From contig JACOVT010000038.1 of NCBI GenBank assembly GCA_016177165.1, positions 1-26,805 of the forward strand: DNA of 26,805 nucleotides, given 5' to 3'. Each line of letters begins with the position of its first letter. Position 1 is the first letter of the stretch. The DNA is from Candidatus Micrarchaeota archaeon. Lineage in GTDB: Archaea; B1Sed10-29; JACOVT01. A model generated the notes under the pieces. That model searched no databases. It was not told the DNA's origin and saw nothing but the letters and a program-made list of their open reading frames with translations. The translations under genes and the position numbers were made by a program. This document shows, in pieces, positions 8,989 through 26,720 of the stretch.

Positions 8989-9001
8989 CGTTACACACCA
9001 T

Positions 9002-9101: not shown

Positions 9102-9286
9102 TTCGCCAATATCATTCCGCGCGAGCGCGGTCAGCGCTCCAGAGATTGTTCCGCGAAGACGCAAGCGCTTTTGGTAAAGCTTTTCTCGACCAAGGAGCGT
9201 CATCGGAGAAGCAAAGCTTCTCCGTGATCTCGACGAAGCTCTGCTTCGTCGCAGACGCAAGCGCGACTTCATAGCGGAAAAGGTTT
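9102..9286 (-). ncRNA. tRNA-Trp intron with a box C/D-like guide for 2'-O-methylation of C34
   Basis: Box D CTGA (9134-9131) is preceded by UCUGGAGC, complementary to pre-tRNA GCUCCAGA (9293-9286); the D-5 nucleotide pairs with C34. C'-like GATGACG at 9204-9198 and a degenerate C-like TATGAAG near 9273-9267. Intron-encoded C/D guides in tRNA-Trp are established for euryarchaea. Confidence 0.65.
9204..9251. repeat. Pair of GAAGC-N3-GCTTC hairpins inside the tRNA-Trp intron
   Basis: CGGAGAAGC-AAA-GCTTCTCCG (9204-9224) and CGACGAAGC-TCT-GCTTCGTCG (9231-9251), both perfect 9-bp stems. Confidence 0.85.
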
Positions 9287-9350
9287 CTGGAGCCTAACGT
9301 GCTGCCAGGTTACACCATAACCCCGCTGCTTGGATTATGTCTTACAGCGA

Positions 9351-9356
9351 TTTAAA
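9351..9356 (-). promoter_or_regulatory. TATA box of tRNA-Trp
   Basis: TTTAAA 27-32 nt upstream of the tRNA 5' end (9324). An equivalent TTTAAA (15257-15262) precedes tRNA-Arg. Confidence 0.6.
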
Positions 9357-9359
9357 GCC

Positions 9360-9848
9360 CTATTTTAACCACACGGCATTGGTGTCCTTTGCCTCATAGA
9401 ACGAGAAGAACGTGAGCGTCCTGCCGACTTCTGGCGCGTTCCAAAGCGTGTCCACCACCCACGAGCCGATCTCGCGCTCGTTTGCTCCGCGCACCTTTAG
9501 TATGACGTCCCACTCGCCGGTAACCACATGGGCTTCCTCCACTTCTGGTAGTTGGGCGAGAGAATCGCCGATGTTTTTTGGTTTGATCCTGTCTCGCTTT
9601 GAGAACGGCCTCGGCACCCGCCTGACCAACACGAATGCAGTTGTCGGCATGCCTACCTTGTAGTGGTCCACTATTGCCGAGAATCCCTTGATTATTCCGG
9701 TTTCCACAAGCTTCCTGATCCGCTGGTGGACTGTCGTCGCAGGCATCTTGAGCTTGCGTCCCAATTCTCTCGTTGACTGCCTGCAGTTCTTCTGCAGTTC
9801 TTCCAGTATGGTCTTATCAGCCTCATCTAAATTGTACAAAAATATCAC
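9360..9848 (-). CDS. Lrp/AsnC-family transcriptional regulator (162 aa)
   Basis: LDEADKTILEELQKNCR.S.RELG..L......VHQRIRKL...GII.GF HTH, followed by the RAM domain 'PEVEEAHVVTGEWDVILKV...V.RTLT'. Confidence 0.92.
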   Translation of the reverse strand: MIFLYNLDEADKTILEELQKNCRQSTRELGRKLKMPATTVHQRIRKLVETGIIKGFSAIVDHYKVGMPTTAFVLVRRVPRPFSKRDRIKPKNIGDSLAQLPEVEEAHVVTGEWDVILKVRGANEREIGSWVVDTLWNAPEVGRTLTFFSFYEAKDTNAVWLK

Positions 9849-9853
9849 CCATT

Positions 9854-9870
9854 AACGTACAATGTACGTT
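9854..9870. promoter_or_regulatory. Perfect 8-1-8 palindrome, candidate Lrp operator
   Basis: AACGTACA-A-TGTACGTT lies between the lrp start and a minus-strand TTTATATA (9892-9885). Confidence 0.55.
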
Positions 9871-9930
9871 TAAGTGGCTATATGTATATAAATCTTACTG
9901 GTTGGTGGTTAAAAAAGCAAACATTAATAT

Positions 9931-12900
9931 ATGGGTTGTTCATATATCATCATGGCCGGCTGGACCGCCACCCATTCGAGCCTTGCCTTCGTCAATCTTG
10001 TAGGGCTCCTTCTGGTCTTTTGCCTGATTGTCATCGGCTTTCTCACACCTGTTGGTGTAGCGTCACATGGAAACTCAAAGAAATCCGACCCACCTAATAT
10101 CGGTAAGGACAAGCTCTGTTCATCGCTTCCAGACTCTGGCGGGAAGTGCGATTTTCCTTTGAACAGGTCCGGCAATGTTGGAGGAACCAACCTAAAGCAG
10201 TACAACACCACTGTTCAAACAATCTACGAGTACTTGAGGATCGAGAAGCTGACCCTCAAGAACGGCAAGCCGGACGCGACCATGGAATTCTACGTCAATG
10301 GGAAGCTGAAGCTCTCGTTCAGGGCGAACAGCGCTTCCGCGAACAACTACTGGATTGATGGAAACAAGCTCAAGGTAAGGCAGCAAGTCAAGCTACCCCC
10401 GGGAAACAACCTTCTGGCCGTCAGGGTGGTTGACAACTTCGCCAGCACATCGGCGCAAAAGGATATGGCATACGTTTTCTACCCAAATCACGCCCCAACA
10501 TTGCAAATGGTTACCCCGTCCAACAAAGACTATTGGAGCGGAACCAAAACAATCAAGTGGGATGCCAAGGATATAGACGACGACCCGCTGGCATTCACCG
10601 TGGAATACTCAACAGATGGAAAAACATTCACCACGCTAGCGGCAAACATTGCAGATAGCAGGTACGTCTGGGACACCAAGAGTGTTCCAGACAACGACTC
10701 GTACACGATCAGAGTTGCGGTTTCTGACGGAATGGCCAAGGTCGCCAACTTCACCACGCTTACGGTAGACAACATGCCACCAAAGGTGGCGCTGGCGCTC
10801 GAGCCGCTGCTTTCAGAGTACCTTGTTACCTCACCCCTGCCGGTAGAACACTTTGAGGCCGACCCGCAAGTCAGCGGCAAGCCTTCCGGGATTGCTTCCA
10901 CGTCATGGGACATCGACGGTATGGCCATGCAGGACATGAATATTAGTGACTGGATCGGCAAGCACAAACTAACCCTTACAATAGCAGACCGCGCAGGCAA
11001 CAAGAACTCCGCTTCTGTCGAGTTTGTTGGTATCACTCCTGAAGGCTGCACTACTATTGATTGCGGCGAACAGGCTGCATTGGAAGCCAATTCTAATGGC
11101 AAGATGTTCAAGGGCGCTACTGTGAAAACCACTGCCCAAGAACTGCAGGCTCTCCAAGAGGCCGCATCACAGCAGCCGCACACCCTCCTTCTAAGGTCTG
11201 GAAGCTTTACACCTGGGAAGGGAATAGATGACGCGCTTTCAAAAAAGAACGGAAGCGATGGTTACACATACGCGTACTTAATGTTCAACAAAACAGCTTC
11301 AAGCGCTGACTTAGACTCGCTGCGCTCGTTGGGCGTCAAGCTGCTCAGCTCGCATGACTATTACTCATATTCGGCCCGGATTCCTATGCAGAACATTTCA
11401 AAGATAGCCGGCCTGAACTCGATTTACTGGATGGGATACCTGCCAGCCGACTACAAGCTAGACCCAGTTCTGCAGAAAGCCCTAGACCCGAACAAGACTT
11501 TCGACGATGCCACGAATGAGAACTACAAGCTGTTTGAGGACTATCTCAAAGCAAACGGCCTATCGCTCGACAACATTACGGTATCGGTTAGCACATACCA
11601 GCTCGACCTCTCTGGCGACTTTGGCGAGAAGCTCGGGCAGGCGGGCCTTACCGGCGAACACGAGGATGAAACTCTGGCCGTATTCTATGGCACTGCGAGC
11701 ATTGATGCAGCCAAAAAGATGGCTGGCCTCGGGTTTGTAAACTACGTTAATGTTGTTCTGGGCGGGTCAACGGCGTTGCTCGAAAGCTCGCCAACGATCG
11801 GAGCGGACTATCTTAGCTTCGTCAACGGTCAGATAATGAACGGCGCAGGTGTGCGCGTCGGCATAATAGACAGCGGCTATGACAATGATCACCCATGGCT
11901 GCCGAATTATGGTTCCTGCAGGAACTTCTTGGACAACAATAACGACTGTTCTGACACCCACGGCCATGGAAATTACGTTGCAGGCATCCTGCTGGGACAG
12001 GACGCTAGGCATAGAGGGATAGCCTATGGTGTAACTGGCCCGAAAATAGCCAAGGTGACAGACTCGAGCGGAAACTTCAATGATGCGACAGTGCTTTCTG
12101 CAATGGACTGGATGGCCCAAGACCCGGTTCCGAGCGTGGTGAGCGTTAGTCTTGCAGATCCCATGTTGAAGTGCACTGGCACGGACGACCTAAGCAGACG
12201 GTTGGACAGCAAGGTGTCACAAAACGGCCAAGTGTATGTTGTTGCTGCCGGAAACAACGGCAATATTGGCGCTCAAAGGGTAGGCATGCCGGGGTGTGCC
12301 AAGAACGCAATAACAGTTGGAGCCACCACTGACTACGACACAACCGACTCGGTATGGATGGAAAGCCAACGGGGAAGCAGCTATGGGCCTACAGGGGATG
12401 GAAGGATAAAGCCAGACCTGGTGGCTCCGGGCTGCCTGATTGAGTCGGCGTGGATGAACGGCGGGTCATACGCTGATTGCGGGACCAGCGCCGCCGCGCC
12501 CCACGTTTCTGGCGTGGTGGCAACGCTATTGCAGCACTACGACTGGCTGCACGGGTACCCGGAGCTTGTCAAAGCGCTGCTAATGGCGACCTCAATAAAC
12601 AGTCAATCATGGCCCATTAACAAGTACGGGGCTGGGAAAGTCGACGCGCTGGCAGCAAACTGGTTGTTTGACTACCAGTCTGGTTACAGGTGGAAAACGG
12701 GCTACGGCACGTTTACCGACACTGACCATTGGCACCACTTGGATTTAGTAGTACCATCGGACGCCGCCAAGCTGGTCATTTACCTCACTTGGATGGAACC
12801 GCCCGCGGACGCCGCAAGCGACCATGCCGTGCTGAACAACCTCGACTTGTACTTGGACAGGGAACCATTGCAGGATTCTGGCAACGGTTATGATTGGGAT

Positions 12901-14313
12901 TGGAAATCAGAGTCGTTCAAAGACAATGTGGAGCGGATAATAGTCAATTCCCCCAGTTCCGGCAATTACCAGATAAAGATATTCCCTGTCTCTCTGGATG
13001 TCGGCAGGGCGCCTACCCAGAAGTATGCGGTGGCGTACATGATCGTGAGGGGTCCCACATCACCTTCCCTCGATGTCGGCGTGGACGCGCCCAGCGTGGT
13101 GAATGCTGGCCAATCGTTCACTTTCAAGGCCACGCTTGCCCCGGCGTCATACATGGCATCAGGGGTATACTCTAAGATAACAGTGCCGCAGGATGTTTTG
13201 ATACAGTCAGCCACTACCACGCGCAAGGATGGCACTGTGCGTCACTATGACGGCGCTGCCGGAGTCAACCTTGGAAACATACTATTCTATACTGGTTACG
13301 AACGTACTGTAACATGGTCGTTGAGCGCCAGCTCGTATGGCCAAAAGACCATCAGCTTGGATGTCTGCGGTAGCAACTCTGACTGCCGCGTTGTTGAAAC
13401 AACCGTGAGGGTGAACGCGCCGCCGGCAGCCGGTTTTACGTTCTCTCCAGCCAGCCCGACCACAGCAGACTCTGTACTATTTACAGACACTTCAACAGAC
13501 GACGCTGGCGTGGCATCTTGGAGCTGGAGCTTCGGGGACGGCTCGTCGTCAAGCGAGCGCAACCCATTCCACAGGTACGCGAGCGCAGGCGCCTATTCGG
13601 TAACGCTGACAGTAACGGATGGGAGCGGCGCCACAAGCACCAAAAGCACCCAGATTTCCGTTTCCGACCCCGTAACGCCGCCACCTCCGCCACCAGAAAC
13701 ACTTCTTTCAGAAGACTTTGAGGATGGAAACGCGAACGGGTGGAACTCCCTATCCGGCTCGATGAGTGTCATTGCCGGAAACCTTGATGGTTCTGGCAGC
13801 TATGTCCTAAAGGTCACTTCGGATGGAGACACGCCTTCCGGCGTCCTATACTCCGGCGGCACTGGTTGGCTGAACTATAATATTGACGTGCAGTTTAGGG
13901 AGATAGAAACCAACGATCCGGGCGGCGACCCTTTGGGATCCGACCCCAACACTTATGTCAATGTTTACTTCTACCAACAGTCGGCCTCAAATGCAAACAA
14001 TGGGTATAAGCTGCACATTCGAGGAAGGCAAGGAACCACTTCTCTCTTTAAGGTAGTAAATGGGGCTGATACTCAACTTATTACGACCTGTGGCTCGTTC
14101 GACCAGAATCAGCTGCGAAAGATAAAAATCAAGACAACACCCGCGGCAATAGAATACGTGATTACAGACCATAATGGAAACAGTTGTTACAGCGGACTTC
14201 CAATCGAAGACTCCACATTCAGGAGTGGTGCGGTTGGTGTTGCCGCCCATACGGGGGTTGCCGGGACTTATGTCACGACATTGTTTGACAACATTGTTGT
14301 CAAACCCAACTAG
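9931..14313 (+). CDS. Large secreted or membrane-anchored S8 (subtilisin, KP-43-like) serine protease with Ig-like, PKD and C-terminal lectin-like domains (1460 aa)
   Basis: N-terminal hydrophobic segment; triad VGIIDSG, DTHGHGNYVAG and CGTSAAAPHVSG; AAGN, CAKNAITVGA and GRIKPDLVAPG; a KP-43-like beta-barrel (LTW...NNLDL...DNVERI); PKD (WSWSFGDG...HRYASAGAYSVTLTVTD); a Pro linker; and a terminal LLSEDFEDG..GW beta-sandwich. The exact start (9931 or 9952) is uncertain. Confidence 0.9.
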   Translation: MGCSYIIMAGWTATHSSLAFVNLVGLLLVFCLIVIGFLTPVGVASHGNSKKSDPPNIGKDKLCSSLPDSGGKCDFPLNRSGNVGGTNLKQYNTTVQTIYEYLRIEKLTLKNGKPDATMEFYVNGKLKLSFRANSASANNYWIDGNKLKVRQQVKLPPGNNLLAVRVVDNFASTSAQKDMAYVFYPNHAPTLQMVTPSNKDYWSGTKTIKWDAKDIDDDPLAFTVEYSTDGKTFTTLAANIADSRYVWDTKSVPDNDSYTIRVAVSDGMAKVANFTTLTVDNMPPKVALALEPLLSEYLVTSPLPVEHFEADPQVSGKPSGIASTSWDIDGMAMQDMNISDWIGKHKLTLTIADRAGNKNSASVEFVGITPEGCTTIDCGEQAALEANSNGKMFKGATVKTTAQELQALQEAASQQPHTLLLRSGSFTPGKGIDDALSKKNGSDGYTYAYLMFNKTASSADLDSLRSLGVKLLSSHDYYSYSARIPMQNISKIAGLNSIYWMGYLPADYKLDPVLQKALDPNKTFDDATNENYKLFEDYLKANGLSLDNITVSVSTYQLDLSGDFGEKLGQAGLTGEHEDETLAVFYGTASIDAAKKMAGLGFVNYVNVVLGGSTALLESSPTIGADYLSFVNGQIMNGAGVRVGIIDSGYDNDHPWLPNYGSCRNFLDNNNDCSDTHGHGNYVAGILLGQDARHRGIAYGVTGPKIAKVTDSSGNFNDATVLSAMDWMAQDPVPSVVSVSLADPMLKCTGTDDLSRRLDSKVSQNGQVYVVAAGNNGNIGAQRVGMPGCAKNAITVGATTDYDTTDSVWMESQRGSSYGPTGDGRIKPDLVAPGCLIESAWMNGGSYADCGTSAAAPHVSGVVATLLQHYDWLHGYPELVKALLMATSINSQSWPINKYGAGKVDALAANWLFDYQSGYRWKTGYGTFTDTDHWHHLDLVVPSDAAKLVIYLTWMEPPADAASDHAVLNNLDLYLDREPLQDSGNGYDWDWKSESFKDNVERIIVNSPSSGNYQIKIFPVSLDVGRAPTQKYAVAYMIVRGPTSPSLDVGVDAPSVVNAGQSFTFKATLAPASYMASGVYSKITVPQDVLIQSATTTRKDGTVRHYDGAAGVNLGNILFYTGYERTVTWSLSASSYGQKTISLDVCGSNSDCRVVETTVRVNAPPAAGFTFSPASPTTADSVLFTDTSTDDAGVASWSWSFGDGSSSSERNPFHRYASAGAYSVTLTVTDGSGATSTKSTQISVSDPVTPPPPPPETLLSEDFEDGNANGWNSLSGSMSVIAGNLDGSGSYVLKVTSDGDTPSGVLYSGGTGWLNYNIDVQFREIETNDPGGDPLGSDPNTYVNVYFYQQSASNANNGYKLHIRGRQGTTSLFKVVNGADTQLITTCGSFDQNQLRKIKIKTTPAAIEYVITDHNGNSCYSGLPIEDSTFRSGAVGVAAHTGVAGTYVTTLFDNIVVKPN

Positions 14314-14364
14314 GTTTGCGCGAATGGCGTTCTTTTTAAGGTGCTGCCTGCCTAAGTTGGGTTG

Positions 14365-15021
14365 ATGGCGCGTCCAATGGTGGTATCGTGGGAGGCTTTC
14401 CCGCGAGCAGTGCTGTTCGCCATCATGCTGCTTTTCTTGGCTGTTGTCGCCTACGTGAGCATGGGCACTGGCGGCTGGGTAACGTACAACGCCGACATGC
14501 TCCCTAACGAGTCCGGCTGGATGCTAAGCACATACAGCAAGGACCCGAACCTGCAGACGATACGTGAGGGGGTTCTGGATTATTTGAAGCCGGTCGCTGC
14601 CCACCACTATACCTACCGGAATGTTGGCGATCTTAGCAACGCGGCCGGCACGATCTTGGAGGCAAGGGTTAGGGTGGTGCAAGGCGGGATGAGCCCTGGT
14701 TATGCGGAGGTTCCGCCGTTCTATTATGGGGCTTATTTGGCCATAAGTGACGGTTCCAAGCACGCCGGGCTTTCAGTGGGGGATGGATACGTGCAGCTTG
14801 GCAGGCAGCTCTTCAAGCTGGACACGTTGGGAGGCTTCCACACCTACCGGTTGGAGTTGAAGGGCAATCTTGCCAGTGCATACGTTGACGGCAAGCTCGT
14901 GGCTGCCTCGATACCGGTTGACTCCGGCGACAAGAGGATAGAATGGGGTGTTTCTTCCAGCAGCAACACCGGCTATGCCGAGTCGCTGTGGGATTACGTG
15001 AAGTACAAGATAGGCATTTGA
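14365..15021 (+). CDS. Membrane-anchored LamG/concanavalin-like beta-sandwich protein (218 aa)
   Basis: An N-terminal TM helix, then 'FHTYRLEL.GN.ASAYVDG.LV' and 'WDYVKY', typical of LamG-like folds. Co-directional with the protease. Confidence 0.6.
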   Translation: MARPMVVSWEAFPRAVLFAIMLLFLAVVAYVSMGTGGWVTYNADMLPNESGWMLSTYSKDPNLQTIREGVLDYLKPVAAHHYTYRNVGDLSNAAGTILEARVRVVQGGMSPGYAEVPPFYYGAYLAISDGSKHAGLSVGDGYVQLGRQLFKLDTLGGFHTYRLELKGNLASAYVDGKLVAASIPVDSGDKRIEWGVSSSSNTGYAESLWDYVKYKIGI

Positions 15022-15089
15022 ATAGCTAGCCTCCAGCGCCTCATTTGACAACTTGGAGCGAATTGTGGTTCGCTGGCGTTCGAATCGTG

Positions 15090-15233
15090 TGGCGGGCCTG
15101 GAGGGATTCGAACCCCCGACCACCGGCTCTCTCCAGTTTTCCCAGGTTTTTCCCGACTTGCGAGCGCAAGCGAGCGACACCGCGGAAAAAGCTGTAGGAC
15201 GCCGCTGCTCTATCCAGGCTGAGCTACAGGCCC
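15090..15233 (-). tRNA. trnR: tRNA-Arg(CCT), CCA-encoded, with a 66-nt intron at 37/38 (15129-15194); atypical G32 and G27-G43
   Basis: GGGCCTG/CAGGCCC acceptor, D-arm GCTC-AGCCTGGATA-GAGC, anticodon CCT (15198-15196), T-arm GGGGG-TTCGAAT-CCCTC, GCCA end, BHB-like bulges TA|C and AG|A. Confidence 0.85.
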
Positions 15234-15277
15234 GCAAATAGGTTTGGTTTGCCTGCTTTAAATGAGAATGTAGGCTG

Positions 15278-16027
15278 CTAGAGCAGCAGGTTCTTGAAGT
15301 TCTGCGCCACGTAGGGGGACTGGATCCATGCGCCGATTTCCTGCTTTTCCTCCTCTGGCGTGAGGAACAGCATCACGTGGTCGTCGACTATCATCATCCT
15401 GTGCAGGTCGCTCTTTTTCACGACTTCTCCCACGTGTCTTGCCCGCTTTTCGAGCAGGTCGTCCGCTAGTGGAGAGATTATGCTTATCTTGACTCCGCGT
15501 TTCTTTGCGCTAAGGAGGGTGTCCTCATATGCCGCGAGCTTGCGCTTGAGCCCTGCCGGGGATGATGCTATTAGTATGGAGCTGTGCGCGTTCTGTATGA
15601 GCGACTCGATCTTGGCGTGTATGTTTTCAGAGTCGCGGAGCACCCAGACGAAGTCGCCTGAGTCGGCTTGCTGCTGCGAGGTATCGAGGAGGCGTACGTG
15701 TTCGGTGAGTTGGGTGCGTATCTTGTCCATTTCTGACAGTTCTTTTTGGAAGTCCCGCTGCCTGAACTCCTTTAGAGAAGAGAAGGCTTCGCTCACGGTG
15801 AGGGCGCGGAACTTGGAGGGACGTCCGGGCTGGGTGCTCACGAACCCCTTCTTTCCGAGCTTGTCAAGTACGTCATAAGTGCGCGGGCGGGGTATGCCTG
15901 CAAGGTCGCTGAGCTCTGATGCGCTCGTAGGCCCGCCGCCAAGCAGGGCCAGGTACACGCGAGATTCGTACTGGTTGAGCCCTATCCTGCGCAGTAGTGC
16001 TAGTGCGTCCCCGTTCACGAGTTTCAT
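15278..16027 (-). CDS. TrmB-family transcriptional regulator (249 aa)
   Basis: GLNQYESRVYLALL...A.ELS..AGIPRPRTYDVL..L.KKGFV...GRP..FRA wHTH, a coiled coil, and a PLD-like effector domain (MMIVDD). ATG at 16027 is preferred over TTG at 16090. Confidence 0.88.
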   Translation of the reverse strand: MKLVNGDALALLRRIGLNQYESRVYLALLGGGPTSASELSDLAGIPRPRTYDVLDKLGKKGFVSTQPGRPSKFRALTVSEAFSSLKEFRQRDFQKELSEMDKIRTQLTEHVRLLDTSQQQADSGDFVWVLRDSENIHAKIESLIQNAHSSILIASSPAGLKRKLAAYEDTLLSAKKRGVKISIISPLADDLLEKRARHVGEVVKKSDLHRMMIVDDHVMLFLTPEEEKQEIGAWIQSPYVAQNFKNLLL

Positions 16028-16136
16028 ACTACTGGGAAGTGGTTTATAAACCTCGGTCTTTGGATCCACGTAGCTATTTAAGAACAGCAACCTTTAAATA
16101 TGTTATCACTTAGAAATAGTTACAATTAGGGATTTG

Positions 16137-17699
16137 ATGCTTAGGAAAACCCTTTTGATCTTGGTGCTGGCGGCAACTGCGCTTGCCAGCGTCAGCATCA
16201 CCTCGACAGAACAGTCCAAGACCGTGGCAAAACCCGACTTGGCGACGTTCTCGCTGCAGCTGAACGGCACCGGTTATTTCACTTTCGGCATTGACACCCC
16301 GCTCGACGTGTCCTTCTCACAAAAAACCATCAACCTGACCGGCACACCCCAGACGGTCCTCATGTTCGTTCTTACCAAGTTCGTTGACCCGGGCGTCTAC
16401 ATAATAACATTCAAGGCAACAGACGAGTCGTTTTCAACCACATCATACAAGTTCTTCCTAGAGGTCGAGGAAGGCACGCCCGACCTGATGATCTCGCCAG
16501 TCTACTCCCGCATTTCCGCGCTGCAGGGCGAACAGGCAAAACTCTCGTTCATCGTGCGCAACGAGGCAAACCAGGAAGTCAGGAACGTGATACTTCACGG
16601 CGACATATCTGACAAGTTCAACCCGGTCTACCCGGAAGTGTTTGACCTCGAGCCGCGCGAGTCAAAGACGGTCGACGTCCATGTCACCATCCCGCAGGAC
16701 TACCCTGCAGGCAAGTACAAGTTCACGGTGTCTGCCGCGCTCGGCAGCCTGGAACATGATGCAAGCACAGAACTGGTTGTAAAAAAGCGCGCCGAAGTCG
16801 CCGGCACGCTCACCGCAGAGCTGCTGCTTCCATGGGAACCGCTCAAGAGGAACGGCGAGACCGTCGGGTACACTCTCTTCCTCAGGGTAAAGAACCAAGG
16901 CTCCATGACCATGGATGGCGCCGAAGTGGTTTTCCAAGGCTTCCCGCCCGGGTGGGCCTTCAGCGGGGACACGCGTTTCTCAATCCGGCCGTTTGACGTG
17001 CGCGACCTAGCGCTTAACATCGAGCCAAACGGCGACTTCTCGGAGCACACTGGAGACATCGTGCTTGTAAAGGACTTGGAGACGATAACGCGCGCGCCAG
17101 TGACGCTCGCAGGCTTTAAGGTGGGAGTGTCAGCTTCGGGGCTGGCCACTCTCGGAGGCTTGGGAGGTTCGCTCACGGTCGGAGTGCTTTTCGTGGTGGT
17201 CATAGTTCTCGTGCTGCTTTTCGTGAGGCAGCGCAACAAGAAGACCGACCGCAAAGAGGACGACCACATCAAGCAATACTTGGAATCGCTTGTCTCAAAA
17301 GCCAAGGGCGAAATGCAAAAGGAAGCAAAGCCCGTCATGCCGGCCGCGCCGGTCCAAAAACCGGCCGCTGCAAACCAGTCCGGCAGCCGGCCTGAACAGA
17401 GGGCAAAGCAGCCTGAAGGCGACGTAGAGGAAGAGATCAGCGAAGTCACGGAAGAGCCGCAGCAAGAGTTCGAGGAATTCTCAGAAACCCTTGCAGAACC
17501 GGCTGCAGCAGAGCCAGAGTCCACCACTGTTACTGTTGAGACTGGCGAAGAATCACCAACAGAAGAGGAAGTCGAAGAGCTTTCAGAAGAGCCCGACGAG
17601 GACCAGCCGCTGGCGAGGCTAGTGAAAAAGGCATCCCAAGCCCCGCGCAGAAGGGTGGTCCGTCGAGTCGTGCGCAGGAAAGTCCGCGGTCGCAAGTAA
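16137..17699 (+). CDS. Secreted/type-I membrane protein with CARDB/NEW3-like Ig repeats and a charged cytoplasmic tail (520 aa)
   Basis: Signal peptide MLRKTLLILVLAATALA; Ig motifs (VRNE.N..V.NV.L...L.P.E...V.V.V.IP..YPAG.Y; VKNQG..TMDGAEV...GFP.GW); TM helix LTVGVLFVVVIVLVLLFV; a Glu-rich segment; and the Arg-rich end RRRVVRRVVRRKVRGRK. Confidence 0.8.
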   Translation: MLRKTLLILVLAATALASVSITSTEQSKTVAKPDLATFSLQLNGTGYFTFGIDTPLDVSFSQKTINLTGTPQTVLMFVLTKFVDPGVYIITFKATDESFSTTSYKFFLEVEEGTPDLMISPVYSRISALQGEQAKLSFIVRNEANQEVRNVILHGDISDKFNPVYPEVFDLEPRESKTVDVHVTIPQDYPAGKYKFTVSAALGSLEHDASTELVVKKRAEVAGTLTAELLLPWEPLKRNGETVGYTLFLRVKNQGSMTMDGAEVVFQGFPPGWAFSGDTRFSIRPFDVRDLALNIEPNGDFSEHTGDIVLVKDLETITRAPVTLAGFKVGVSASGLATLGGLGGSLTVGVLFVVVIVLVLLFVRQRNKKTDRKEDDHIKQYLESLVSKAKGEMQKEAKPVMPAAPVQKPAAANQSGSRPEQRAKQPEGDVEEEISEVTEEPQQEFEEFSETLAEPAAAEPESTTVTVETGEESPTEEEVEELSEEPDEDQPLARLVKKASQAPRRRVVRRVVRRKVRGRK

Positions 17700-18787: not shown

Positions 18788-18790
18788 CGG

Positions 18791-19006: not shown

Positions 19007-19087
19007 TGGTTATTTACGCTCGGCCAAGTTTTTATATGGTGGGGATGCCCAGGAAAGCGTTTTAAATGAACCAGTCGTTGTCAGAGC

Positions 19088-19531: not shown

Positions 19532-19569
19532 CAGCTTAAATACGGGCTGCTCTTACTACAAGTGATACA

Positions 19570-19791
19570 ATGAGAGGACGTTCCCAACCCCAAAGGTGCT
19601 ACTACTGTGGCGGGCTATACCCGATAGACACAATGTCACGCTCGTTCAAGCGTCGCTTCTCCTACTTTGACGATCGCGCTGGAATAAGCTACGCAGGCCC
19701 TTCCGAGACGATATACGTCTGCCCCAAGTGCGGCCGCCGCCGCCACGTCCGCGACATGCGCCCCCACCGTGGAAGACCAAAGAAACGCTAA
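19570..19791 (+). CDS. Ribosomal protein eS26-like Zn-binding protein (73 aa)
   Basis: RGxxQPxRCxxCxxxxPxDxxxxxFxxR has the same spacing as the eS26 N-terminal motif recalled from eukaryotic RPS26 ([28 protein letters not shown]). A second CxxC is followed by VR and a basic tail. Confidence 0.65.
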   Translation: MRGRSQPQRCYYCGGLYPIDTMSRSFKRRFSYFDDRAGISYAGPSETIYVCPKCGRRRHVRDMRPHRGRPKKR

Positions 19792-19857
19792 GTCGCTGTG
19801 TAGCTGTTGAGCGGCTTTACCCCTCCCCTTGTCCTGCGGGATGGTGCCGTCATTCGG

Positions 19858-20940
19858 TCACTTCACGTAAACCGTGAGCGACAGGACAATCTCGAAGACG
19901 ATGAGCAGCACTATTAGGAACTCGAGCCAGACGTTGCGCTGGGCGTCCACGCGCGCCAAGGCGAGCGAGTAGAAGTCCTCGACCTCGTCCAACTTGCGCT
20001 CGACGTCGGCGTGCCATTCCTTCAGGCGCAGCTTGTCCGACGCTAGCGCGTAGAGTTTTCCAATATACCAGTCGCCGATAAAGGAAGACATGTTGTAAAT
20101 GTCGCTCACCACGTCCGTCACCTCGAGGCGCAGCTCGGCAATGTCGCGCGCGGTCTCGCTGATCCGTGCCGGTTTCAGCAGCAGGCCAGCCCGCGGGGAT
20201 ATTATCTCGCGCACTTGCGAGTAAGTCCGGTCGCTCTCCTTGATCAGCAGGTCGTTGTACGTCCGCAACTCTAAGAGTTGGGCGTTCGCCAACTCCAAGA
20301 TAGTTAACACGTCCCTCTCGTCATGCGGTTCTATCACCACTGCGCCCGTAAAACCGATGACTGCCAAGTCGTCATGGTAGTAGCTTATAGCCGACTCGCT
20401 CACGCGCTTTACTTCCTCATCGCTCAGCAGCGAGACGTCCCCCTCCTCGCGCAAGAGCGCAGCTATCACGCGCTCGTTCTCCTTGAGGACCTGGCCAGCA
20501 TCGATGCCCTCGTTCTTGATCACGATCACCTTGTAGTCTTCCGGCTCGACGTGGTGGTCGTAAGTGCTCTCCAAAGCTTCTTTCAAGTCGGACAGTATTC
20601 TGGATGATATCTCCACGGCTTTCTTTTCCAGCCCGATGGGCTTGTCTTTCAGCAGAGAACGCAACTCACCGTCAAAGCTTCTCCTGAACAGCACGCTCAC
20701 GACGCCCACGGCGAACACCCTTGCGGTTACCTCATACTGGGTTCCTTCAATCGTCTGTTTGCCGATGGGTATCTCGAGAGGCGCTGGCGTCACGCGGATG
20801 TATTCCGGCGTCAGCTTTGAGTAGACCAGCTGCTGTTCCCTTGGTTTCTTGTTCAACACCCGTTCAACGCGCTCTAGGGCGAACTCGCCGCCAGCATCAA
20901 AAAGGTAGTAATTGTTCACGTAGCCGGACAACACCTTCAT
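19858..20940 (-). CDS. RMD1/DUF155-family membrane protein (360 aa)
   Basis: 'ISYYHDDLAVI', 'ELANAQLLELRTYNDLL', 'GDWYIGKLY', 'W..DVERKL', and C-terminal 'LEFLIVLLIVFEIV'. Confidence 0.7.
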   Translation of the reverse strand: MKVLSGYVNNYYLFDAGGEFALERVERVLNKKPREQQLVYSKLTPEYIRVTPAPLEIPIGKQTIEGTQYEVTARVFAVGVVSVLFRRSFDGELRSLLKDKPIGLEKKAVEISSRILSDLKEALESTYDHHVEPEDYKVIVIKNEGIDAGQVLKENERVIAALLREEGDVSLLSDEEVKRVSESAISYYHDDLAVIGFTGAVVIEPHDERDVLTILELANAQLLELRTYNDLLIKESDRTYSQVREIISPRAGLLLKPARISETARDIAELRLEVTDVVSDIYNMSSFIGDWYIGKLYALASDKLRLKEWHADVERKLDEVEDFYSLALARVDAQRNVWLEFLIVLLIVFEIVLSLTVYVK

Positions 20941-22145
20941 GCGCCCACTGCCTGTTTTCTCTTGCTCTTCCTTTCAATGGCCAACATCCCGATGGTGTAT
21001 ATTATCACCGTGACCACTATGACGGTGAAAACTATGTCGGCGAACGCCTCGGTGCCCGCGACCCCCCTCGAAGCGGGCAGGTATGCCAATACAGCTGCCG
21101 TCAATCCGCGGGGCAGCATGATGGTCATTATGCTCCGGTCAAAAGGCGTCAGGTCGCGGTTCCGGTGGGTCGAGACACGCACCGCTACCGCGCGCGCAGC
21201 AAGCAGCGCCAATGCTATCGCGCCCCCGATTGCAAGCGCGCGGTAGTCCTTTATCGACACGATGATGCCGATGTACACGAAAAAGAAGGTGCGCGTGATG
21301 AATGATATGAATGAGTGGAAGTGGCGCGTGGTCTGATCCAGCGCAAACGGCTTTTGGATCTTGAACGTCCGCAGCACCTGCCGCGCATTGCCCAGCACCA
21401 CCCCGAACAGGAGCGCTGCAAGCGCGCCATTGCCCTGCATTAGTTCCACCCCGGAATAGAGCAGGAAAAGCAGCGACAAGGTGACCACGTACGAGAACTC
21501 TATCCTTGCCAGGCGGTGGTAGAGCGGCAGCCACGCTAGCCCTACGAGTATTCCGATGATCGCCCCTATGGAGAACTGGCCGACGAGCGTGCGCGCCGCG
21601 GTCAGCAGGTCTGCCGAACCGGCGAGCGCAAGCTGGCTTATTACTATGAACATGATTATGACAAGCACGTCGTTGATCGCCGTCTCAAGAGAGATCAGCG
21701 CTTTGGCAGCCTTGCTGGTGCCGGCAATGCGCGAGATACCTGACATGACTATGGCCGAGTTGGTGCCGCCGACAACAACTCCCATCAACAGCGAGTTTAT
21801 CACCGAGTATCCTGCAATGAACATAACCGAGGCGGCAGCAACCGCCGACAGGAAAAACGCGGCGAGAGTCAAAGCAACGCTGCTCTTTGCCTCGCTGAAC
21901 ATGCTGTACATGTCCATCCCGAGGCCGCCTTCGAACACGATGATGGCTATTGCAACAGCCGCGAAAAGCTCGACTATCCCGATGAACTGCTGCGGGTTGG
22001 CCACCCCGAACACGGGACCAAGCAGGAGTCCGAGGGCAAGCAGCCAGAGCACGCTCGGAACGTTAGTCTTGCGAAACACGAGTTCTCCTAAGAACCCGAG
22101 CAATAGTATCATCCCTACAGAAGCGAGTGCAACCTCTACCCCCAT
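20937..22145 (-). CDS. CPA1 (NhaP-like) cation:proton antiporter (402 aa)
   Basis: About 12-13 TM segments; 'IIVFEGGL', 'GGTNSAIV', 'LETAINDV' (CPA1 E...ND motif), 'FFFVYIG', 'LPRGLTAAVLA'. Confidence 0.9.
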   Translation of the reverse strand: MGVEVALASVGMILLLGFLGELVFRKTNVPSVLWLLALGLLLGPVFGVANPQQFIGIVELFAAVAIAIIVFEGGLGMDMYSMFSEAKSSVALTLAAFFLSAVAAASVMFIAGYSVINSLLMGVVVGGTNSAIVMSGISRIAGTSKAAKALISLETAINDVLVIIMFIVISQLALAGSADLLTAARTLVGQFSIGAIIGILVGLAWLPLYHRLARIEFSYVVTLSLLFLLYSGVELMQGNGALAALLFGVVLGNARQVLRTFKIQKPFALDQTTRHFHSFISFITRTFFFVYIGIIVSIKDYRALAIGGAIALALLAARAVAVRVSTHRNRDLTPFDRSIMTIMLPRGLTAAVLAYLPASRGVAGTEAFADIVFTVIVVTVIIYTIGMLAIERKSKRKQAVGA

Positions 22146-22197
22146 GAATAGGTTTAGCCAGTGAAGGCTTAAATATTACAAGCCCCTACTAATCCAG

Positions 22198-22512
22198 ATG
22201 GTTTTCTGCGGTTTGTGCAAACAGAACCGCGAGTCCAAATGCCGTTGGACAATAAAGGAACACGCAGTAGACAATTCCCTACTAAAGGACTTGCGAGTTT
22301 GCCATGGGTGCGCCACCTCGCTGGTGCGCAAAATGCTGATAGAGATCAACCCGCAAGAGGCAGCCAACGACACTATCGTGCTTTCCCGCACCGGCCTCAT
22401 CGACAGCGTGATGCTCAACAAGGACGACGAGCTCGAGGTCGCCATATCGATGGACGTGGCCAAAGCTAGGAAGATAGTCGAGGAAATACTCGCGGCTGCC
22501 GAGAAAAAATAA
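22198..22512 (+). CDS. Hypothetical protein with two CxxC pairs, putative Zn ribbon (104 aa)
   Basis: CGLC ... CHGC; CTTAAATA about 25-30 nt upstream. Confidence 0.65.
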   Translation: MVFCGLCKQNRESKCRWTIKEHAVDNSLLKDLRVCHGCATSLVRKMLIEINPQEAANDTIVLSRTGLIDSVMLNKDDELEVAISMDVAKARKIVEEILAAAEKK

Positions 22513-22561
22513 CAAGCCGGAAAAACAGGAGTAGAACCGCCAGAAGTGACTGTCGCAGGTG

Positions 22562-22656
22562 ACAGGAATGCCCGCTCGCAAAGCAGTTAACAGGAATGCC
22601 CGCTCGCAAACAGCACGGCCATCGATTAACCAGCACGGCCATCGATTAACCAGCAC
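22562..22656. repeat. Two abutting tandem duplications (28-bp period and 20-bp period)
   Basis: ACAGGAATGCCCGCTCGCAAA at 22562-22582 and 22590-22610; CAGCACGGCCATCGATTAAC at 22611-22630 and 22631-22650, plus CAGCAC at 22651-22656. Confidence 0.9.
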
Positions 22657-22688
22657 TCTATTACCCAGCAAGCGGCTTGCCATGGTCG

Positions 22689-22934
22689 CTACTTTTTACG
22701 TTTTGCCTTGATCTCCTCGTGCCCGTCCAAGAACGGCATGAGCTCCCTAATGAACTGCTCCTTGACCAGCCTGGGCGGCGGGAAAGGCGCCCAGTACAGG
22801 CGTGACACTCGTCCCCTGCGCAGGGCACCGATGCACTTGCAGTACGGCCGCATGCGTTCCTTTACCACCATTGCAGGGTAAACCGACCAGCCAAGGTCTG
22901 ACAAGCCGTCGACGTCAGCCATGCCACCACTCAC
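22689..22934 (-). CDS. Small hypothetical protein (81 aa; alternative ATG at 22922)
   Basis: The GTG start overlaps the upstream TGA stop (GTGA), suggesting translational coupling. Confidence 0.55.
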   Translation of the reverse strand: MSGGMADVDGLSDLGWSVYPAMVVKERMRPYCKCIGALRRGRVSRLYWAPFPPPRLVKEQFIRELMPFLDGHEEIKAKRKK

Positions 22935-23200
22935 TTGATGAAAAACCGTATCATTGCGCCTATGATGAACGCAAAAATCGCCAAGTTGGTGACGAGTATC
23001 ATGTAGAGCATGCGCCTGTTCTCGCGCGCATGGCGCGCGACTTCCCGCTTGTGCTGCTCGTAGTCGTGCAAAAGCACCTCGAGCTTGCGTATCTCCTCAA
23101 GCAGCTCATGCGAGGACACGGCGCCGGCAGCCGGCCTGAACTGCCGCTGCGGCTCTGCAGGTTGTACCAGTTCTTTCAATGGTTTCTTTTGGAATGACAT
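22931..23200 (-). CDS. Coiled-coil protein with a single C-terminal TM anchor (89 aa)
   Basis: Helical 'ELLEEIRKLEVLLHDYEQHKREVARHARENRR' followed by 'MLYMILVTNLAIFAFIIGAMI' and a basic end. Confidence 0.7.
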   Translation of the reverse strand: MSFQKKPLKELVQPAEPQRQFRPAAGAVSSHELLEEIRKLEVLLHDYEQHKREVARHARENRRMLYMILVTNLAIFAFIIGAMIRFFIK

Positions 23201-23266
23201 GAGAACACTCGTTGCTGCTGTTGGGACTCATTGTCGTTTATTAAACATTACTGTGAAAATAACATC

Positions 23267-23704
23267 ATGCAAACGAGACGCAATCGCAGGTTCGGGGTGG
23301 GAAGTAAAGACGCCACAAAGGTCCGACAGGCGGCCCGCATGATAACGGGCGCTGGACGCCCGCGAGAGTTGGAAGTTGAAGCACTAATAGAACTGCCGCT
23401 CAGGTTGCGCATTCCACAAGTTAGGACTTCACGCAGCACTGGAAGCAGCTGGTGGCTGCTCAGGCGCGTCATCCCGGCAGTCAGGTCAGGGAAGGCCATT
23501 CCAATAGCTCCATCGCCGCGCCTAAAAGGCGTACTTAGAAGAACCGGCGTCAAAGTGCCGACCACCGGTTTCATTAGAGTTAACCCATCGCAGGCCGAGA
23601 GCGCCGCAGCTGCTGGCTTCCACCTAGTAGGCGGAGCCTACGTCATACTCAAGCCCAATCAGCTGAGCGACCTCAGAAGGCGCGGCCTGATTGGCAGAGA
23701 ATAG
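23267..23704 (+). CDS. Arg-rich hypothetical protein (145 aa)
   Basis: TTTATTAAA about 22-30 nt upstream of the ATG at 23267. No recognisable family. Confidence 0.6.
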   Translation: MQTRRNRRFGVGSKDATKVRQAARMITGAGRPRELEVEALIELPLRLRIPQVRTSRSTGSSWWLLRRVIPAVRSGKAIPIAPSPRLKGVLRRTGVKVPTTGFIRVNPSQAESAAAAGFHLVGGAYVILKPNQLSDLRRRGLIGRE

Positions 23705-23721
23705 AGAAGTGAGAGCGGCGG

Positions 23722-25122
23722 CTAGTTTCCGGCAAGGGTGCTGGCGAGCCCAATGTATGATTCAGGGGTCAGGCGCTTCAGGCGGGCCTTGAGCTCTTCG
23801 CTGACCTGAAGGCCATCCACGAATCTTGACAGGTCTTGCATCGTAACACGTTTTCCGCGCGTGACCTCCCTGAGCTTCTCATAAGGCATCTCGACGCCCT
23901 CGCGCCGGAGTATCGTCTGTATGGCTTCTGAAACAACCTCCGGATGGTTCCGCAGAGCTTCGGCCACCTTGGCCTCGTTGACTGACACCTTGCCAAGGCC
24001 CTTTACGGCCGAGTTGTAGGCTATCACGCAATGACCTAGAGCAACGCCAATGTTTCTTAGGACGGTCGCGTCAGATAGGTCCCTTTGCAGCCTTGAGATT
24101 GGCAGCTTGGAGGAGAAGTGGTGTAGCAGCGCGTTTGCTATGCCCAGGTTTCCTTCGCAGTTCTCGAAGTCGATCGGGTTCACCTTGTGCGGCATCGTGG
24201 ACGACCCGACCTCGCCTGCAACAGGCTTCTGGACCAGCCAGTCGTCGCTTATGTATCTCCAGGCGTCCTGCGCTAGCCCGATTACCACCGTGTTTAACCG
24301 GTGGATGTTGTCAAACAGCTCGGCGTACGAGTCATGTGGTTCAATCTGTGTGGTGACCAGGTTTGGGGCGAGCCGCACTCGCCTGCCAGAGTTGAGCGTT
24401 TCCACGAATTGCCTGGTGAAAGCCACCCAGTCGACATCAGGGCACGCGGCCTGGTGCGCGTTATAATTCCCAGTCGCGCCATTCAGCTTTACCAGCAGCT
24501 CGGTTGACTCTAGCTGGTCGACTTGTCTCTTCACGCGCGAGGCGAACACCCTGAACTCCTTTCCAAAAGTGGTGGGCGAGGCCGGCTGGCCGTGGGTCCG
24601 CGCAAGTATGGCGACGTTCCTGTAAAGTAATGCAAGCTCGTCGAGCCTCTCGTAGAGCGCTTTTGCGGCCGGTATCAGTACCTTTTCCAGGCTGTCGCTC
24701 ATCATCATAGAGTGCGCGATGTTTTTCGTGTCGTCGGAAGTAAGCGCGAAATGCACCCATTCGAGCGAGTCGCTGAGCGACGTCCCACCTAGCTTTTCCT
24801 TGATGTAATACTCGATGGCCTTGAGGTCATGGTTGGTCGGCCTCATCCCATCGTGGCCCCCTACCTCAATGTCCTTCACGATGGCAGCGTCCGCGGCAGA
24901 GATGGCGCCCACTGAACGTATGCGTAGCTTCTCCTCTTCGGTGAACCTCCTGAGGCCCGTGCCGCTGGTTTCGGAAAGCGCTATCAGGTAGGCGCATTCG
25001 ACCATCGTGCGGTACTTGATCAGCGCCCTTTCACTGAAAAACTCCGCTAGCGGCTCTACCTGGCCCCGGTAGCGGCCGTCTATCGGGCTTATCGCGTCCA
25101 ACGTCTCCATTACGCTCAGCAT
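23722..25122 (-). CDS. purB: Adenylosuccinate lyase, E. coli-type (about 462-466 aa)
   Basis: AISPIDGRY, TNHDLKAIEY, HFALTSDD, ARTHGQPA, NGATGNYNAH, TTQIEPHD, SSTMPHKVNPIDFEN, QRDLSD.TVLRN. Start at ATG 25122 or 25110; the track's 25341 start overlaps purA. Confidence 0.93.
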   Translation of the reverse strand: MLSVMETLDAISPIDGRYRGQVEPLAEFFSERALIKYRTMVECAYLIALSETSGTGLRRFTEEEKLRIRSVGAISAADAAIVKDIEVGGHDGMRPTNHDLKAIEYYIKEKLGGTSLSDSLEWVHFALTSDDTKNIAHSMMMSDSLEKVLIPAAKALYERLDELALLYRNVAILARTHGQPASPTTFGKEFRVFASRVKRQVDQLESTELLVKLNGATGNYNAHQAACPDVDWVAFTRQFVETLNSGRRVRLAPNLVTTQIEPHDSYAELFDNIHRLNTVVIGLAQDAWRYISDDWLVQKPVAGEVGSSTMPHKVNPIDFENCEGNLGIANALLHHFSSKLPISRLQRDLSDATVLRNIGVALGHCVIAYNSAVKGLGKVSVNEAKVAEALRNHPEVVSEAIQTILRREGVEMPYEKLREVTRGKRVTMQDLSRFVDGLQVSEELKARLKRLTPESYIGLASTLAGN

Positions 25123-25182
25123 TCTAATTAAATGCCCATTGTATAAATAATCAAACCATGTAAGTATTGGCGGGGTGGCTAT

Positions 25183-26568
25183 ATGGGTCTTGTCACGATA
25201 GTGGGTGCCCTTTGGGGAGATGAGGGCAAGGGGAAAATTACTGACGTTGTCAACGAGCAGGCAGACCTGATAGTCAAGACCAACGGCGGGGCCAACGCAG
25301 GCACCACTTTCGTGATTGATGGCAAGAAGCACGTGCTCCACCTGCTGCCTTCAGGAGTGCTGCGCGGGAAACGCTCGCTCCTTGCGCAAGGCATTGTAAT
25401 GAGGCCAGAACAGCTGTGCAAGGAACTTGAGGAGTTTGACTGGAAAGTCAGCATAGGCATCGACCCGAGGCTGCACGTCACTCTCCCTTACCACCTCGCG
25501 CTTGATTATGCTCGGGAAAAGGCAGCCGACCTGAAGGCAAAGGGCGACAACAAGACTGTAGGGGGCGCGATAGGCACGACCCTTTCAGGAATAGGCCCCA
25601 CCTACGAGCAGCAGAAGAGCCGGGCAGGTATCCGCTTCTGCGAGCTCGCTGGCGACGAGGAGAAACTCAAGAAAAGGGTTGAAGAGAACTACAATTACGT
25701 TAAGGGAATAATAGCACAATCAGGCCTGGACGTGGTGATGCCCGACCGGAAACAGGTCGACGGAAAGTACGTCGTGAACGAGGTGCCGCTCACGCCGGAG
25801 TACTGCCAGCAAGTGGCGGTCGAATCCGGCCGCAAGCTTGGCAAGTACCTTTCCGACGTGTCGCTGGAAGTAATCGAGGCGCTAGGCGCTGGCAAGAACG
25901 TGGTGTTCCAAGGCGCCCAAGGAACCATGCTCGACATCGGTTTCGGCAACTACCCAAAAGTCACGAGCTCTGAGACCCGCGCGCCGGCCGCCTACGCGGC
26001 CGTGGGCATACCGCCTGTTCCAATGCGCGTTATCGGCATTGTCAAGGCCTACCCGACAAAAGTCGGCTCCGGTCCTGTCGTGACCTGCCTTGACGGTGGC
26101 AGGTGGCCCGTCGACGAGGCCTGCTCTGATGACATAGCCAAGACAATACGCAAGCGCGCCAACGAGAGAGGCGCGACTACCGGCAGGGCCCGGCGGATCG
26201 GCTGGCCCGACATGGTCGTGCTGAAGTATTCCAGCCAGCTCAACGGCTTCACCAACATAGCCCTGACCCTCTTGGACGTGCTGCACGACATAGACCCGAT
26301 AAAGGTATGCGTGGAATACGAAATAGATGGCAAGAGGACCGACGCCTACCCGTCATGGGATCTGGACGCGCTGGCAAGGGCAAAGCCGGTTTACAAGGAG
26401 CTGCCCGGCTTCGGCGACATTACTGGCGTAAGGGAGTACGGCCAACTGCCTGATGGGGCAAAACAATACATACGGCTGATCGAGCAGGCAACCGGCGCGC
26501 CGGTCTCCATAATATCCGTGGGCCCGGATAGAGAGCAGACCATACTAAGGGATTTCAAACCCTTCTAA
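25183..26568 (+). CDS. purA: Adenylosuccinate synthetase-family protein (461 aa) with atypical active-site residues
   Basis: WGDEGKGK, LHLLPSG, IGTT.SGIGP, GAQG...YP.VTSS, GATTGR.RR.GW, LDVL, SVGPDREQT. The His41-equivalent position is Thr (NAGTT). Confidence 0.88.
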   Translation: MGLVTIVGALWGDEGKGKITDVVNEQADLIVKTNGGANAGTTFVIDGKKHVLHLLPSGVLRGKRSLLAQGIVMRPEQLCKELEEFDWKVSIGIDPRLHVTLPYHLALDYAREKAADLKAKGDNKTVGGAIGTTLSGIGPTYEQQKSRAGIRFCELAGDEEKLKKRVEENYNYVKGIIAQSGLDVVMPDRKQVDGKYVVNEVPLTPEYCQQVAVESGRKLGKYLSDVSLEVIEALGAGKNVVFQGAQGTMLDIGFGNYPKVTSSETRAPAAYAAVGIPPVPMRVIGIVKAYPTKVGSGPVVTCLDGGRWPVDEACSDDIAKTIRKRANERGATTGRARRIGWPDMVVLKYSSQLNGFTNIALTLLDVLHDIDPIKVCVEYEIDGKRTDAYPSWDLDALARAKPVYKELPGFGDITGVREYGQLPDGAKQYIRLIEQATGAPVSIISVGPDREQTILRDFKPF

Positions 26569-26640
26569 TTCTGGAAGTGCTGAAATCAGGAAAAGCCTCG
26601 GGAAAACGAATGATATTTCAAGTGTTTTCTTTGGGACACA

Positions 26641-26720
26641 AGAAGAAGCCTAGCTTCTTCTGTGCAGAGGAAGCTTGGCTTCCTCAAGCACCTTGTACTT
26701 TTCTTTTCTAAAAAGAAAAG
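26641..26720. repeat. Intergenic cluster of three 3-nt-loop hairpins; the T-rich third hairpin may act as a terminator
   Basis: AGAAGAAGC-CTA-GCTTCTTCT (26641-26661), GAGGAAGC-TTG-GCTTCCTC (26667-26685), CTTTTCTTTT-CTA-AAAAGAAAAG (26698-26720). Confidence 0.8.

Follow-up and report, generated by a model that had tools for sequence, protein, structure and literature searches.

Archaeal tRNA-Trp introns of the Haloferax volcanii type are box C/D guide introns. How tRNA introns arrive in archaeal genomes is, more generally, an open question. The transposed (paralogous) tRNA introns of Thermoproteales (Fujishima et al., 2010, via PMC4090602) were described in a 2014 review as moving by an unknown transposition mechanism, and a preprint on Asgard archaea (10.64898/2026.10.13.758758), in which copying, mobile elements and reverse transcription were tested, did not reveal any general way in which introns arrive. 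Here we describe a stretch of 26,805 nucleotides from a Candidatus Micrarchaeota archaeon (contig JACOVT010000038.1 of assembly GCA_016177165.1; hereafter the window), in which pairs of GAAGC-N3-GCTTC hairpins occur at two tRNA genes, and the repeats to which they belong, which give a concrete handle on this question. We propose, with a probability of roughly 0.55, that the hairpins are a non-coding, DNA-level repeat family, nested in a second, scaffold element that forms tRNA introns, and that they have spread by insertion. No paper on this hairpin family in DPANN or Micrarchaeota was found in the literature.

The source genome (G000; 847 kb in 108 contigs, 79% complete, 55% G+C), of which the window is contig C105, was compared with the other genomes of its order, of which the collection holds 18 in all; G000 is the sole member of its family.

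Hairpin pairs at two tRNA genes of the window

The features at the two sites are as follows (hp, hairpin; R1, a covariance model described below):

9064..9324, minus strand: tRNA-Trp(CCA), with 5' exon 9287-9324, intron 9102-9286 (185 nt) and 3' exon 9064-9101 (ARAGORN with introns allowed)
9198..9257, minus strand: hairpin-pair cassette TCTG-hp-AGATCA-hp-ATGA with perfect stems, the top R1 match (74.5 bits, E 1.6e-19)
9204-9224: hairpin CGGAGAAGC-aaa, perfect stem, in the tRNA-Trp intron
9231-9251: hairpin CGACGAAGC-tct, perfect stem, 6 nt from the preceding hairpin
26635..26692, no strand assigned: hairpin-pair cassette located in a tRNA trailer (tRNA 3' end at ~26727), excluded from the R1 seed and recovered
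26641-26661: hairpin AGAAGAAGC-cta, perfect stem, in the tRNA trailer
26667-26685: hairpin GAGGAAGC-ttg, perfect stem, 5 nt from the preceding hairpin
26698..26720, no strand assigned: T/A-rich 10-bp hairpin right after the tRNA 3' end (hairpin scan), likely a bidirectional stop signal
26727..26805, minus strand: 3' part of a tRNA that the contig end truncates; its T-loop intron is built around the CGGAGAA/TTCTCCG hairpin (26751-26780; from the sequence)

The second pair lies 40-85 nt past the 3' end (~26727) of a minus-strand tRNA that runs off the contig, and both sites are tRNA-associated. An earlier note on this DNA had given the coordinates and stems of the four hairpins correctly, as well as the recurrence of the CGGAGAA stem, which at 26751-26757 pairs with TTCTCCG at 26774-26780. 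It was also right to place the first pair inside a tRNA intron, but the surroundings of the second, which it took for plain intergenic DNA, are a tRNA 3' trailer. These genes are easily overlooked: ARAGORN in its default mode reported 0 tRNAs in the window, its calls there depend on introns being allowed, and several of its isotype or intron calls are wrong, such as the tRNA at 15093-15233 being labelled Phe. In practical terms, tRNA genes affected by these repeats are mostly missed or mis-called by standard tRNA finders.

A family of perfect hairpins concentrated at tRNA genes

The GAAGC-N3-GCTTC core occurs 19 times in the source genome against about one occurrence expected from base composition, and most copies gain a further 3-4 stem pairs. 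It is the commonest form of a broader family whose unit comprises a perfect 8-9 bp stem with a purine-rich 5' arm (for example CGGAGAAGC, CAACGAAGC, CGGCGAAC and CGAGAAAGC), a loop of 3-4 nt and the flanks TCT(G)...(C)AGA. The units are found singly, as abutted pairs, which are the commonest arrangement, or in arrays of up to five, and two abutted units yield a recurrent 6-nt spacer, AGATCT (TCTG-hp-AGATCT-hp-CAGA). Perfect hairpins with stems of at least 8 bp number 142, as against approximately 36-49 in Markov simulations, and pairs of them at a spacing of 2-10 nt number 33, as against 1-6 in five such simulations. In an alignment of 19 copies the two stems are 96% and 99% paired, figures inflated by the origin of these copies in a perfect-stem scan, and two-sided changes are seen at 13 of the 18 pairs, far above shuffled and slid controls.

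The covariance model R1 was seeded with 15 copies, with the pair at 26.6 kb and the copies C34 and C19b held out. It recovered the 26.6-kb pair on either strand (E 7.6e-6 on minus, 1.3e-5 on plus) and C34 (E 7e-11), and C19b only at E ~0.05. Its matches define 24 loci in G000, 15 of which lie in tRNA genes or at most 150 nt from them against 0.39 expected (P ~2e-21), a count for which some of the tRNA calls were made by hand once the hairpins were known; the loci that are not tRNA-linked are intergenic. One single hairpin sits after the signal recognition particle (SRP) RNA. More than 50 related hairpins are present in G000, and about 12 hairpin copies are at contig ends, indicating that the assembly breaks in the repeat and that true copy numbers are probably higher. 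Being perfect palindromes, the units fold in the same way on either strand, and only one of the 11 stem pairs that are not Watson-Crick is G.U when read on the tRNA sense strand. This small sample leans toward a constraint or origin at the level of DNA over selection on RNA alone. Matches to Rfam were limited to tRNA, RNase P and SRP RNA, with no ribozyme or other family on the modules at E values up to 1; hammerhead and kink-turn readings of the hairpin flanks were considered by eye and dropped.

The hairpin pair is cargo in a lineage-specific scaffold repeat

An nhmmer search seeded with a single copy settles on a module of ~112 nt, which is self-matching on both strands. Its ends are inverted, CTTTTTCCG ... 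CGGAAAAAG (type A), with GAGAAAAACCT preceding CGGAAAAAG, and a second end type (type B) reads CCTTTTCC ... AAAAGCTTTACCAAAA. An 18-base scaffold end motif has 20 occurrences in G000 and 0-2 in any one of the order's 17 other genomes, with no occurrence of the reversed control; over both end types there are 28 scaffold ends in G000, which gives about 28 copies. The scaffold exists in two size classes, short forms (53-62 nt) that have a single imperfect hairpin at the centre and long forms (88-148 nt) that contain the hairpin pair or larger arrays. Two alignments (A6 and A7) show both ends to be common to the short and long forms, the difference being a hairpin-bearing block of ~55 nt. This block lies 5' of the central loop in contig C41 and 3' of it in contig C88, implying that it entered the scaffold at least twice. 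The hairpin pair is cargo nested inside a scaffold repeat specific to this lineage. Four scaffold members are present in the window:

9001..9062, minus strand: short form, 62 nt, located in the 3' trailer of tRNA-Trp; one hairpin at its centre, GAAGC pair absent (alignment A6)
9169..9283, minus strand: long form, 115 nt, type B ends, right after the 5' splice site of the tRNA-Trp intron (nhmmer, alignment A6); absent from the Trp intron of the relative G007
15137..15191, minus strand: short form, 55 nt, type A ends, accounting for the greater part of the 73-nt intron in the tRNA at 15093-15233 (Rfam tRNA match with 73-nt insert; motif scan)
26590..26606, plus strand: end motif of the scaffold (GAAAAGCCTCGGGAAAA), in inverted orientation with respect to the tRNA (motif scan); together with the adjacent trailer pair at 26.6 kb it makes up the fourth member

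The first two illustrate the nesting at one gene: in A6 the trailer copy shares both ends with the copy in the Trp intron, minus a 54-nt block.

Scaffold copies as tRNA introns

The scaffold lies in the D-loop, right after ...AG, in at least 12 tRNA genes, and at the anticodon loop in those for Trp, Gly(GCC) and Val and in the tRNA at 15093-15233. The Rfam alignments place inserts of 73, 120 and ~185 nt in tRNAs, the acceptor halves of tRNA-Pro are complementary across the insert, and removal of the insert from the interrupted genes restores a canonical tRNA. The earlier note had seen introns as neutral landing sites for the hairpins. The hairpins do sit in introns; however, the scaffold itself makes up the whole of several of these, with the hairpin pair as its nested cargo. 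In the T-loop introns of G000 the core is formed by single hairpins of the GAAGC family, and the design of the one at 26727..26805 is matched at contigs C42, C2 and C1, with AGCGAAC-type hairpins. At 15040-15092, 26727-26805, C42, C2 and C1 we also observed several tRNAs in which an inverted T-loop copy, a hairpin of the GCGAAC type and another T-arm/acceptor 3' strand come after the gene or break it up. These arrangements are probably T-loop introns mis-placed by Rfam and ARAGORN, so that the 3' ends as annotated may be incorrect.

The exon bases that precede the junction are able to pair with those past the 3' end of the scaffold (4 bp, such as TCCA/TGGA), which leaves a 3-nt 5' bulge beside the end helix. 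Judged by eye and from folds, the junctions would form a relaxed bulge-helix-bulge motif, in which the 3' side is the relaxed one and the scaffold folds as an independent domain. G000 has two genes for the catalytic domain of the tRNA-splicing endonuclease (PF01974; C33:1256-1516 and C41:3694-3945, in ORFs of 215 and 173 aa), which suggests an enzyme of the two-subunit type, and that type cuts non-canonical introns (PMC5829648). One of the two genes lies 800 nt from the module-bearing tRNA-Gly(GCC).

The tRNA-Trp intron, in which the scaffold is an addition to an older intron, has one further feature:

9131..9143, minus strand: box C/D guide TCTGGAGCG with D box CTGA (from the sequence; the guide is conserved in the 64-nt Trp intron of G007)

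The gene encodes CCA in its 3' exon. The guide, TCTGGAGCG-CTGA, pairs with G31-A38 such that C34 is the fifth paired position, five nt upstream of the D box, and so supplies the antisense element of a box C/D guide, its pairing ending one nt short of the D box. For the C box (RTGATGA) the candidates are degenerate at best: ATGAAG close to the 5' end and AATGATAT close to the 3' end. The 64-nt intron of G007 keeps the guide and the downstream AATGATAT and has no module, a conservation that marks the guide region as the old part of the intron. Once the module is subtracted, what is left of the G000 intron has a box C/D-like arrangement that includes the C34 guide, and the intron of G000 is ~3 times the length of its G007 orthologue because the repeat module lies between the 5' splice site and the guide. 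A 12-nt direct repeat (9157-9168 and 9253-9264) brackets 84 nt of the intron, both hairpins included; with these 84 nt and one 12-nt copy taken out, what remains has the spacing C-box-like element, 12-nt repeat, D'-like element, C'-like element, 12-nt guide and D box.

Near-identical copies and patchy presence among relatives

The copy in the tRNA-Pro(CGG) intron (contig C11) and that in contig C14 are identical at 86 of 88 positions, the identity ending exactly at the inverted ends. A 79-nt block of nested hairpins is likewise 76/79 identical between introns of two different tRNAs, and hairpins are nested within hairpins at C1 and C71. The C14 copy has a peculiar setting (C14:1636-1740): a tRNA-like 5' fragment consisting of the acceptor strand, the D-stem and AG leads into the 88-nt scaffold, followed by a terminator-like hairpin and a convergent gene. 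No 3' half for this fragment was found in the G000 assembly; it may be a split tRNA's 5' half or simply an orphan.

Among the relatives, R1 finds ~16 loci in G007, 3 in G012 and 1 in G015, the four carriers representing four families, and no match in the other 14 of the 18 genomes of the order. In G007, 10 of the 16 loci are tRNA-linked (P ~6e-15). Hairpin pairs there occur 12-36 nt after several tRNA genes, with trains of four to six hairpins, and also in one T-loop and one D-loop intron. Such hairpin trailers follow ~13 of its 34 tRNAs, most of the others having plain T runs. In addition, a 59-nt hairpin-pair insert occupies the P3 loop of the G007 RNase P RNA, where the P3 of G000 is short. 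Conversely, G007 has no hairpin pair in its tRNA-Gly(GCC) and no D-arm intron in its tRNA-Pro(CGG). Accordingly, comparison of orthologous introns, which the earlier note had proposed as a check, reveals presence/absence differences between G000 and G007 for the Trp module, the Gly(GCC) pair and the Pro(CGG) D-arm intron. Its broader expectations are borne out too: the hairpins exceed chance across the genome, their stems covary in a manner that preserves structure, and a tRNA-associated, REP-like family is what the tRNA linkage, near-identical copies, nested insertions and patchy distribution describe.

Two further arrays were seen in these relatives. At G007 locus L038 (C8:39980-40150), which adjoins no recognised tRNA, ~150 nt of inserted, hairpin-rich sequence shows homology to the intron in the D-loop of another G007 tRNA, and a perfect 12-nt direct repeat brackets it. 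At G012 L048:250-420, two to three tandem copies of a 41-nt unit with an AGGAGAA/TTCTCCT hairpin directly precede a GAAGC-type hairpin pair.

A proposed route of intron gain

We posit that the GAAGC hairpins would be units of a non-coding, DNA-level repeat comparable to bacterial REP/BIME elements or to miniature inverted-repeat transposable elements (MITEs), and that pairs of them would insert into a second palindromic element of 53-62 nt with inverted ends. When this scaffold lies inside a tRNA body, both the inner helix of a relaxed bulge-helix-bulge motif and the bulge next to that helix would come from it, and the whole insert could then be excised as an intron by a two-subunit splicing endonuclease; the scaffold is also found directly before or after tRNA genes and in a few other intergenic gaps. 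Copies would thus have spread by insertion, and the perfect stems would persist because either spread or harmless folding needs the hairpin.

As a more general idea, for which we see somewhat less than an even chance, small palindromic repeats may be the means by which DPANN archaea acquire tRNA introns: a portable element inserts into one of the loops of a tRNA, its inverted ends form the inner helix of the splice motif so that it is immediately spliceable, and hairpin cassettes nest in it later and lengthen the intron. The D-arm intron of tRNA-Pro(CGG) would be an example of recent gain, as it matches, at 98% identity, a copy that does not lie in any intact tRNA and has no counterpart in the G007 orthologue. 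The two nested repeats are met in five settings, namely as whole introns at three tRNA loops, as inserts in an older guide-bearing intron, in tRNA trailers and leaders, in intergenic gaps and, in a relative, in RNase P RNA. The short and long forms, together with the 98%-identical pair of intron and non-intron copies, make intron gain by insertion of palindromic repeats directly testable.

Several observations weigh against this proposal. No transposase is common to the carrier genomes among the families searched (Y1_Tnp, TnpB and DDE_Tnp_1; other transposase families were not searched): TnpB occurs, among the four carriers, only in G012, and DDE_Tnp_1 in none of them. A scan for flanking direct repeats found no consistent target-site duplication at the copies; it yielded two isolated 12-nt cases, in the Trp intron and at G007 L038, and possible repeats of 3-4 nt, the other long repeats being neighbouring tRNA sequence. 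The scaffold copies in introns are all in sense orientation, which random DNA insertion would not give unless one orientation is tolerated. G000 stands alone in its family, so the relatives compared come from other families. The splicing of the intron copies is something we infer from their sequence. Finally, near-perfect stems, a GAA/TTC core and a spacer conserved across four families could reflect function.

Alternative explanations

This last point leads to an account that we consider unlikely, in which the hairpins serve stable-RNA genes as functional signals in RNA or DNA (for transcription stop, 3'-end processing or as a protein-binding platform), inherited within the order under selection, with copies arising by duplication together with tRNA flanks rather than by insertion. 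It would explain why the GAA/TTC core, an AGRYCT spacer and the TCTG/CAGA flanks are common to four families, why the stems are 96-99% paired with many two-sided changes and why the intron copies of the scaffold have one orientation; it also suits the T runs that flank the modules and the position of hairpin pairs after tRNA, SRP RNA and some protein genes. Yet a minority of tRNA genes carry hairpins, the carriers differ between G000 and G007, and 14 of the 18 genomes of the order have no match. Moreover, copies lie in introns at three loops and within the P3 loop of the RNase P RNA, positions at which a stop signal would do harm, the position of the hairpin block within the scaffold varies, and G.U pairs are not in excess.

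Mobilisation by an HUH tyrosine nuclease encoded elsewhere in the genome (a RAYT or the TnpA of IS200/IS605), which would move REP-like hairpins as single-stranded DNA and which the earlier note had raised as a possibility, appears very unlikely. G000 does have one Y1_Tnp gene, of the IS200/IS605 TnpA type (C54:11276-11740, E 7e-32). The absence of target duplication together with insertion 5' of a short tetranucleotide is the style of IS200/IS605 ends and their short derivatives. In the two insertion cases that can be read, the cassette lies just 5' of TCGT, and its architecture of two hairpins without clear duplication is compatible with single-strand transposition, without a supporting enzyme. 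However, this sole gene, at a contig end, is interrupted by an in-frame TGA about ten codons from its start, and the hairpins on its flanks are imperfect and unlike the GAAGC type; it lies in AT-rich DNA and adjoins a 1.3-kb AT-rich ORF of foreign look. A search for Y1_Tnp gave nothing in G007, which is 92% complete and has ~16 loci, nor in G012, G015 and 36 further relatives; one unrelated genome has one. REPs typically have bulges and a conserved 5' tetranucleotide, both of which are missing from these perfectly palindromic hairpins, and the two hairpin types do not keep a fixed order. The suggestion of such a nuclease in the earlier note finds no backing in the carriers.

Likewise highly improbable is an origin with no transposition at all, in which likeness would arise by gene conversion between tRNA-gene flanks and palindromes would be made or kept locally by template switching or by repair in extruded hairpins, for while it accommodates the lack of a transposase or target duplication among those sought, stems that are Watson-Crick on both strands with very few intermediates, the many copies at one D-loop position beside conserved tRNA sequence and the hairpins within hairpins at C1 and C71, it runs counter to copies at non-homologous sites (RNase P P3, after SRP RNA, intergenic gaps and three tRNA loops) and to an identity that stops at the element ends and not within tRNA sequence, and it leaves the sequence shared across families unexplained.

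Other observations in the window

Attempts to find orthologous loci gave no match in the metagenome collection for the EamA neighbour, and a search for the exact DNA pattern returned 12 contigs, all chance matches within bacterial coding sequence. The PurA gene of the window (25183-26568) has its best relatives in the species-representative genome collection among bacteria, with ~42% identity to those of Streptococcus and others, which suggests a bacterial origin for this gene in the archaeon.

Comparison with known systems

The hairpin family most resembles the bacterial REP/BIME elements (REPINs), with which it shares short palindromic units in dozens of copies, organization in pairs and arrays, location in non-coding DNA, compensated stems, co-transcription with neighbours and a patchy distribution among relatives. 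It differs in its archaeal host and in its preferred sites, which are tRNA introns, leaders and trailers. The doublets of G000 are tandem perfect palindromes of different sequence and not two inverted imperfect REPs; the units lack a GTAG-type head, their conserved part being the GAA/TTC inside the stem, and a cognate RAYT flanked by the same REPs was not found in G000, G007, G012 or G015.

The scaffold is closer to MITEs: it is small (53-148 nt), has no ORF, possesses inverted ends of 8-9 bp and one long hairpin, and occurs in sharply bounded, near-identical copies with nested insertions. Unlike MITEs, it has no clear target-site duplication, no parent insertion sequence with matching ends was found, and its ends double as the inner helix of a splice motif.

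With regard to introns, that of tRNA-Trp keeps, as in the Haloferax volcanii type, a guide and D box that place C34 for methylation, but has no evident guide for position 39. The transposed introns of Thermoproteales are similar in that they imply DNA-level intron gain constrained by the splice motif. The element of G000 departs from them in being palindromic with inverted ends, in occurring outside tRNA bodies as well (in trailers, leaders and intergenic DNA and, in a relative, in RNase P RNA), in carrying a second, nested hairpin repeat, and in having a DPANN archaeon as its host.

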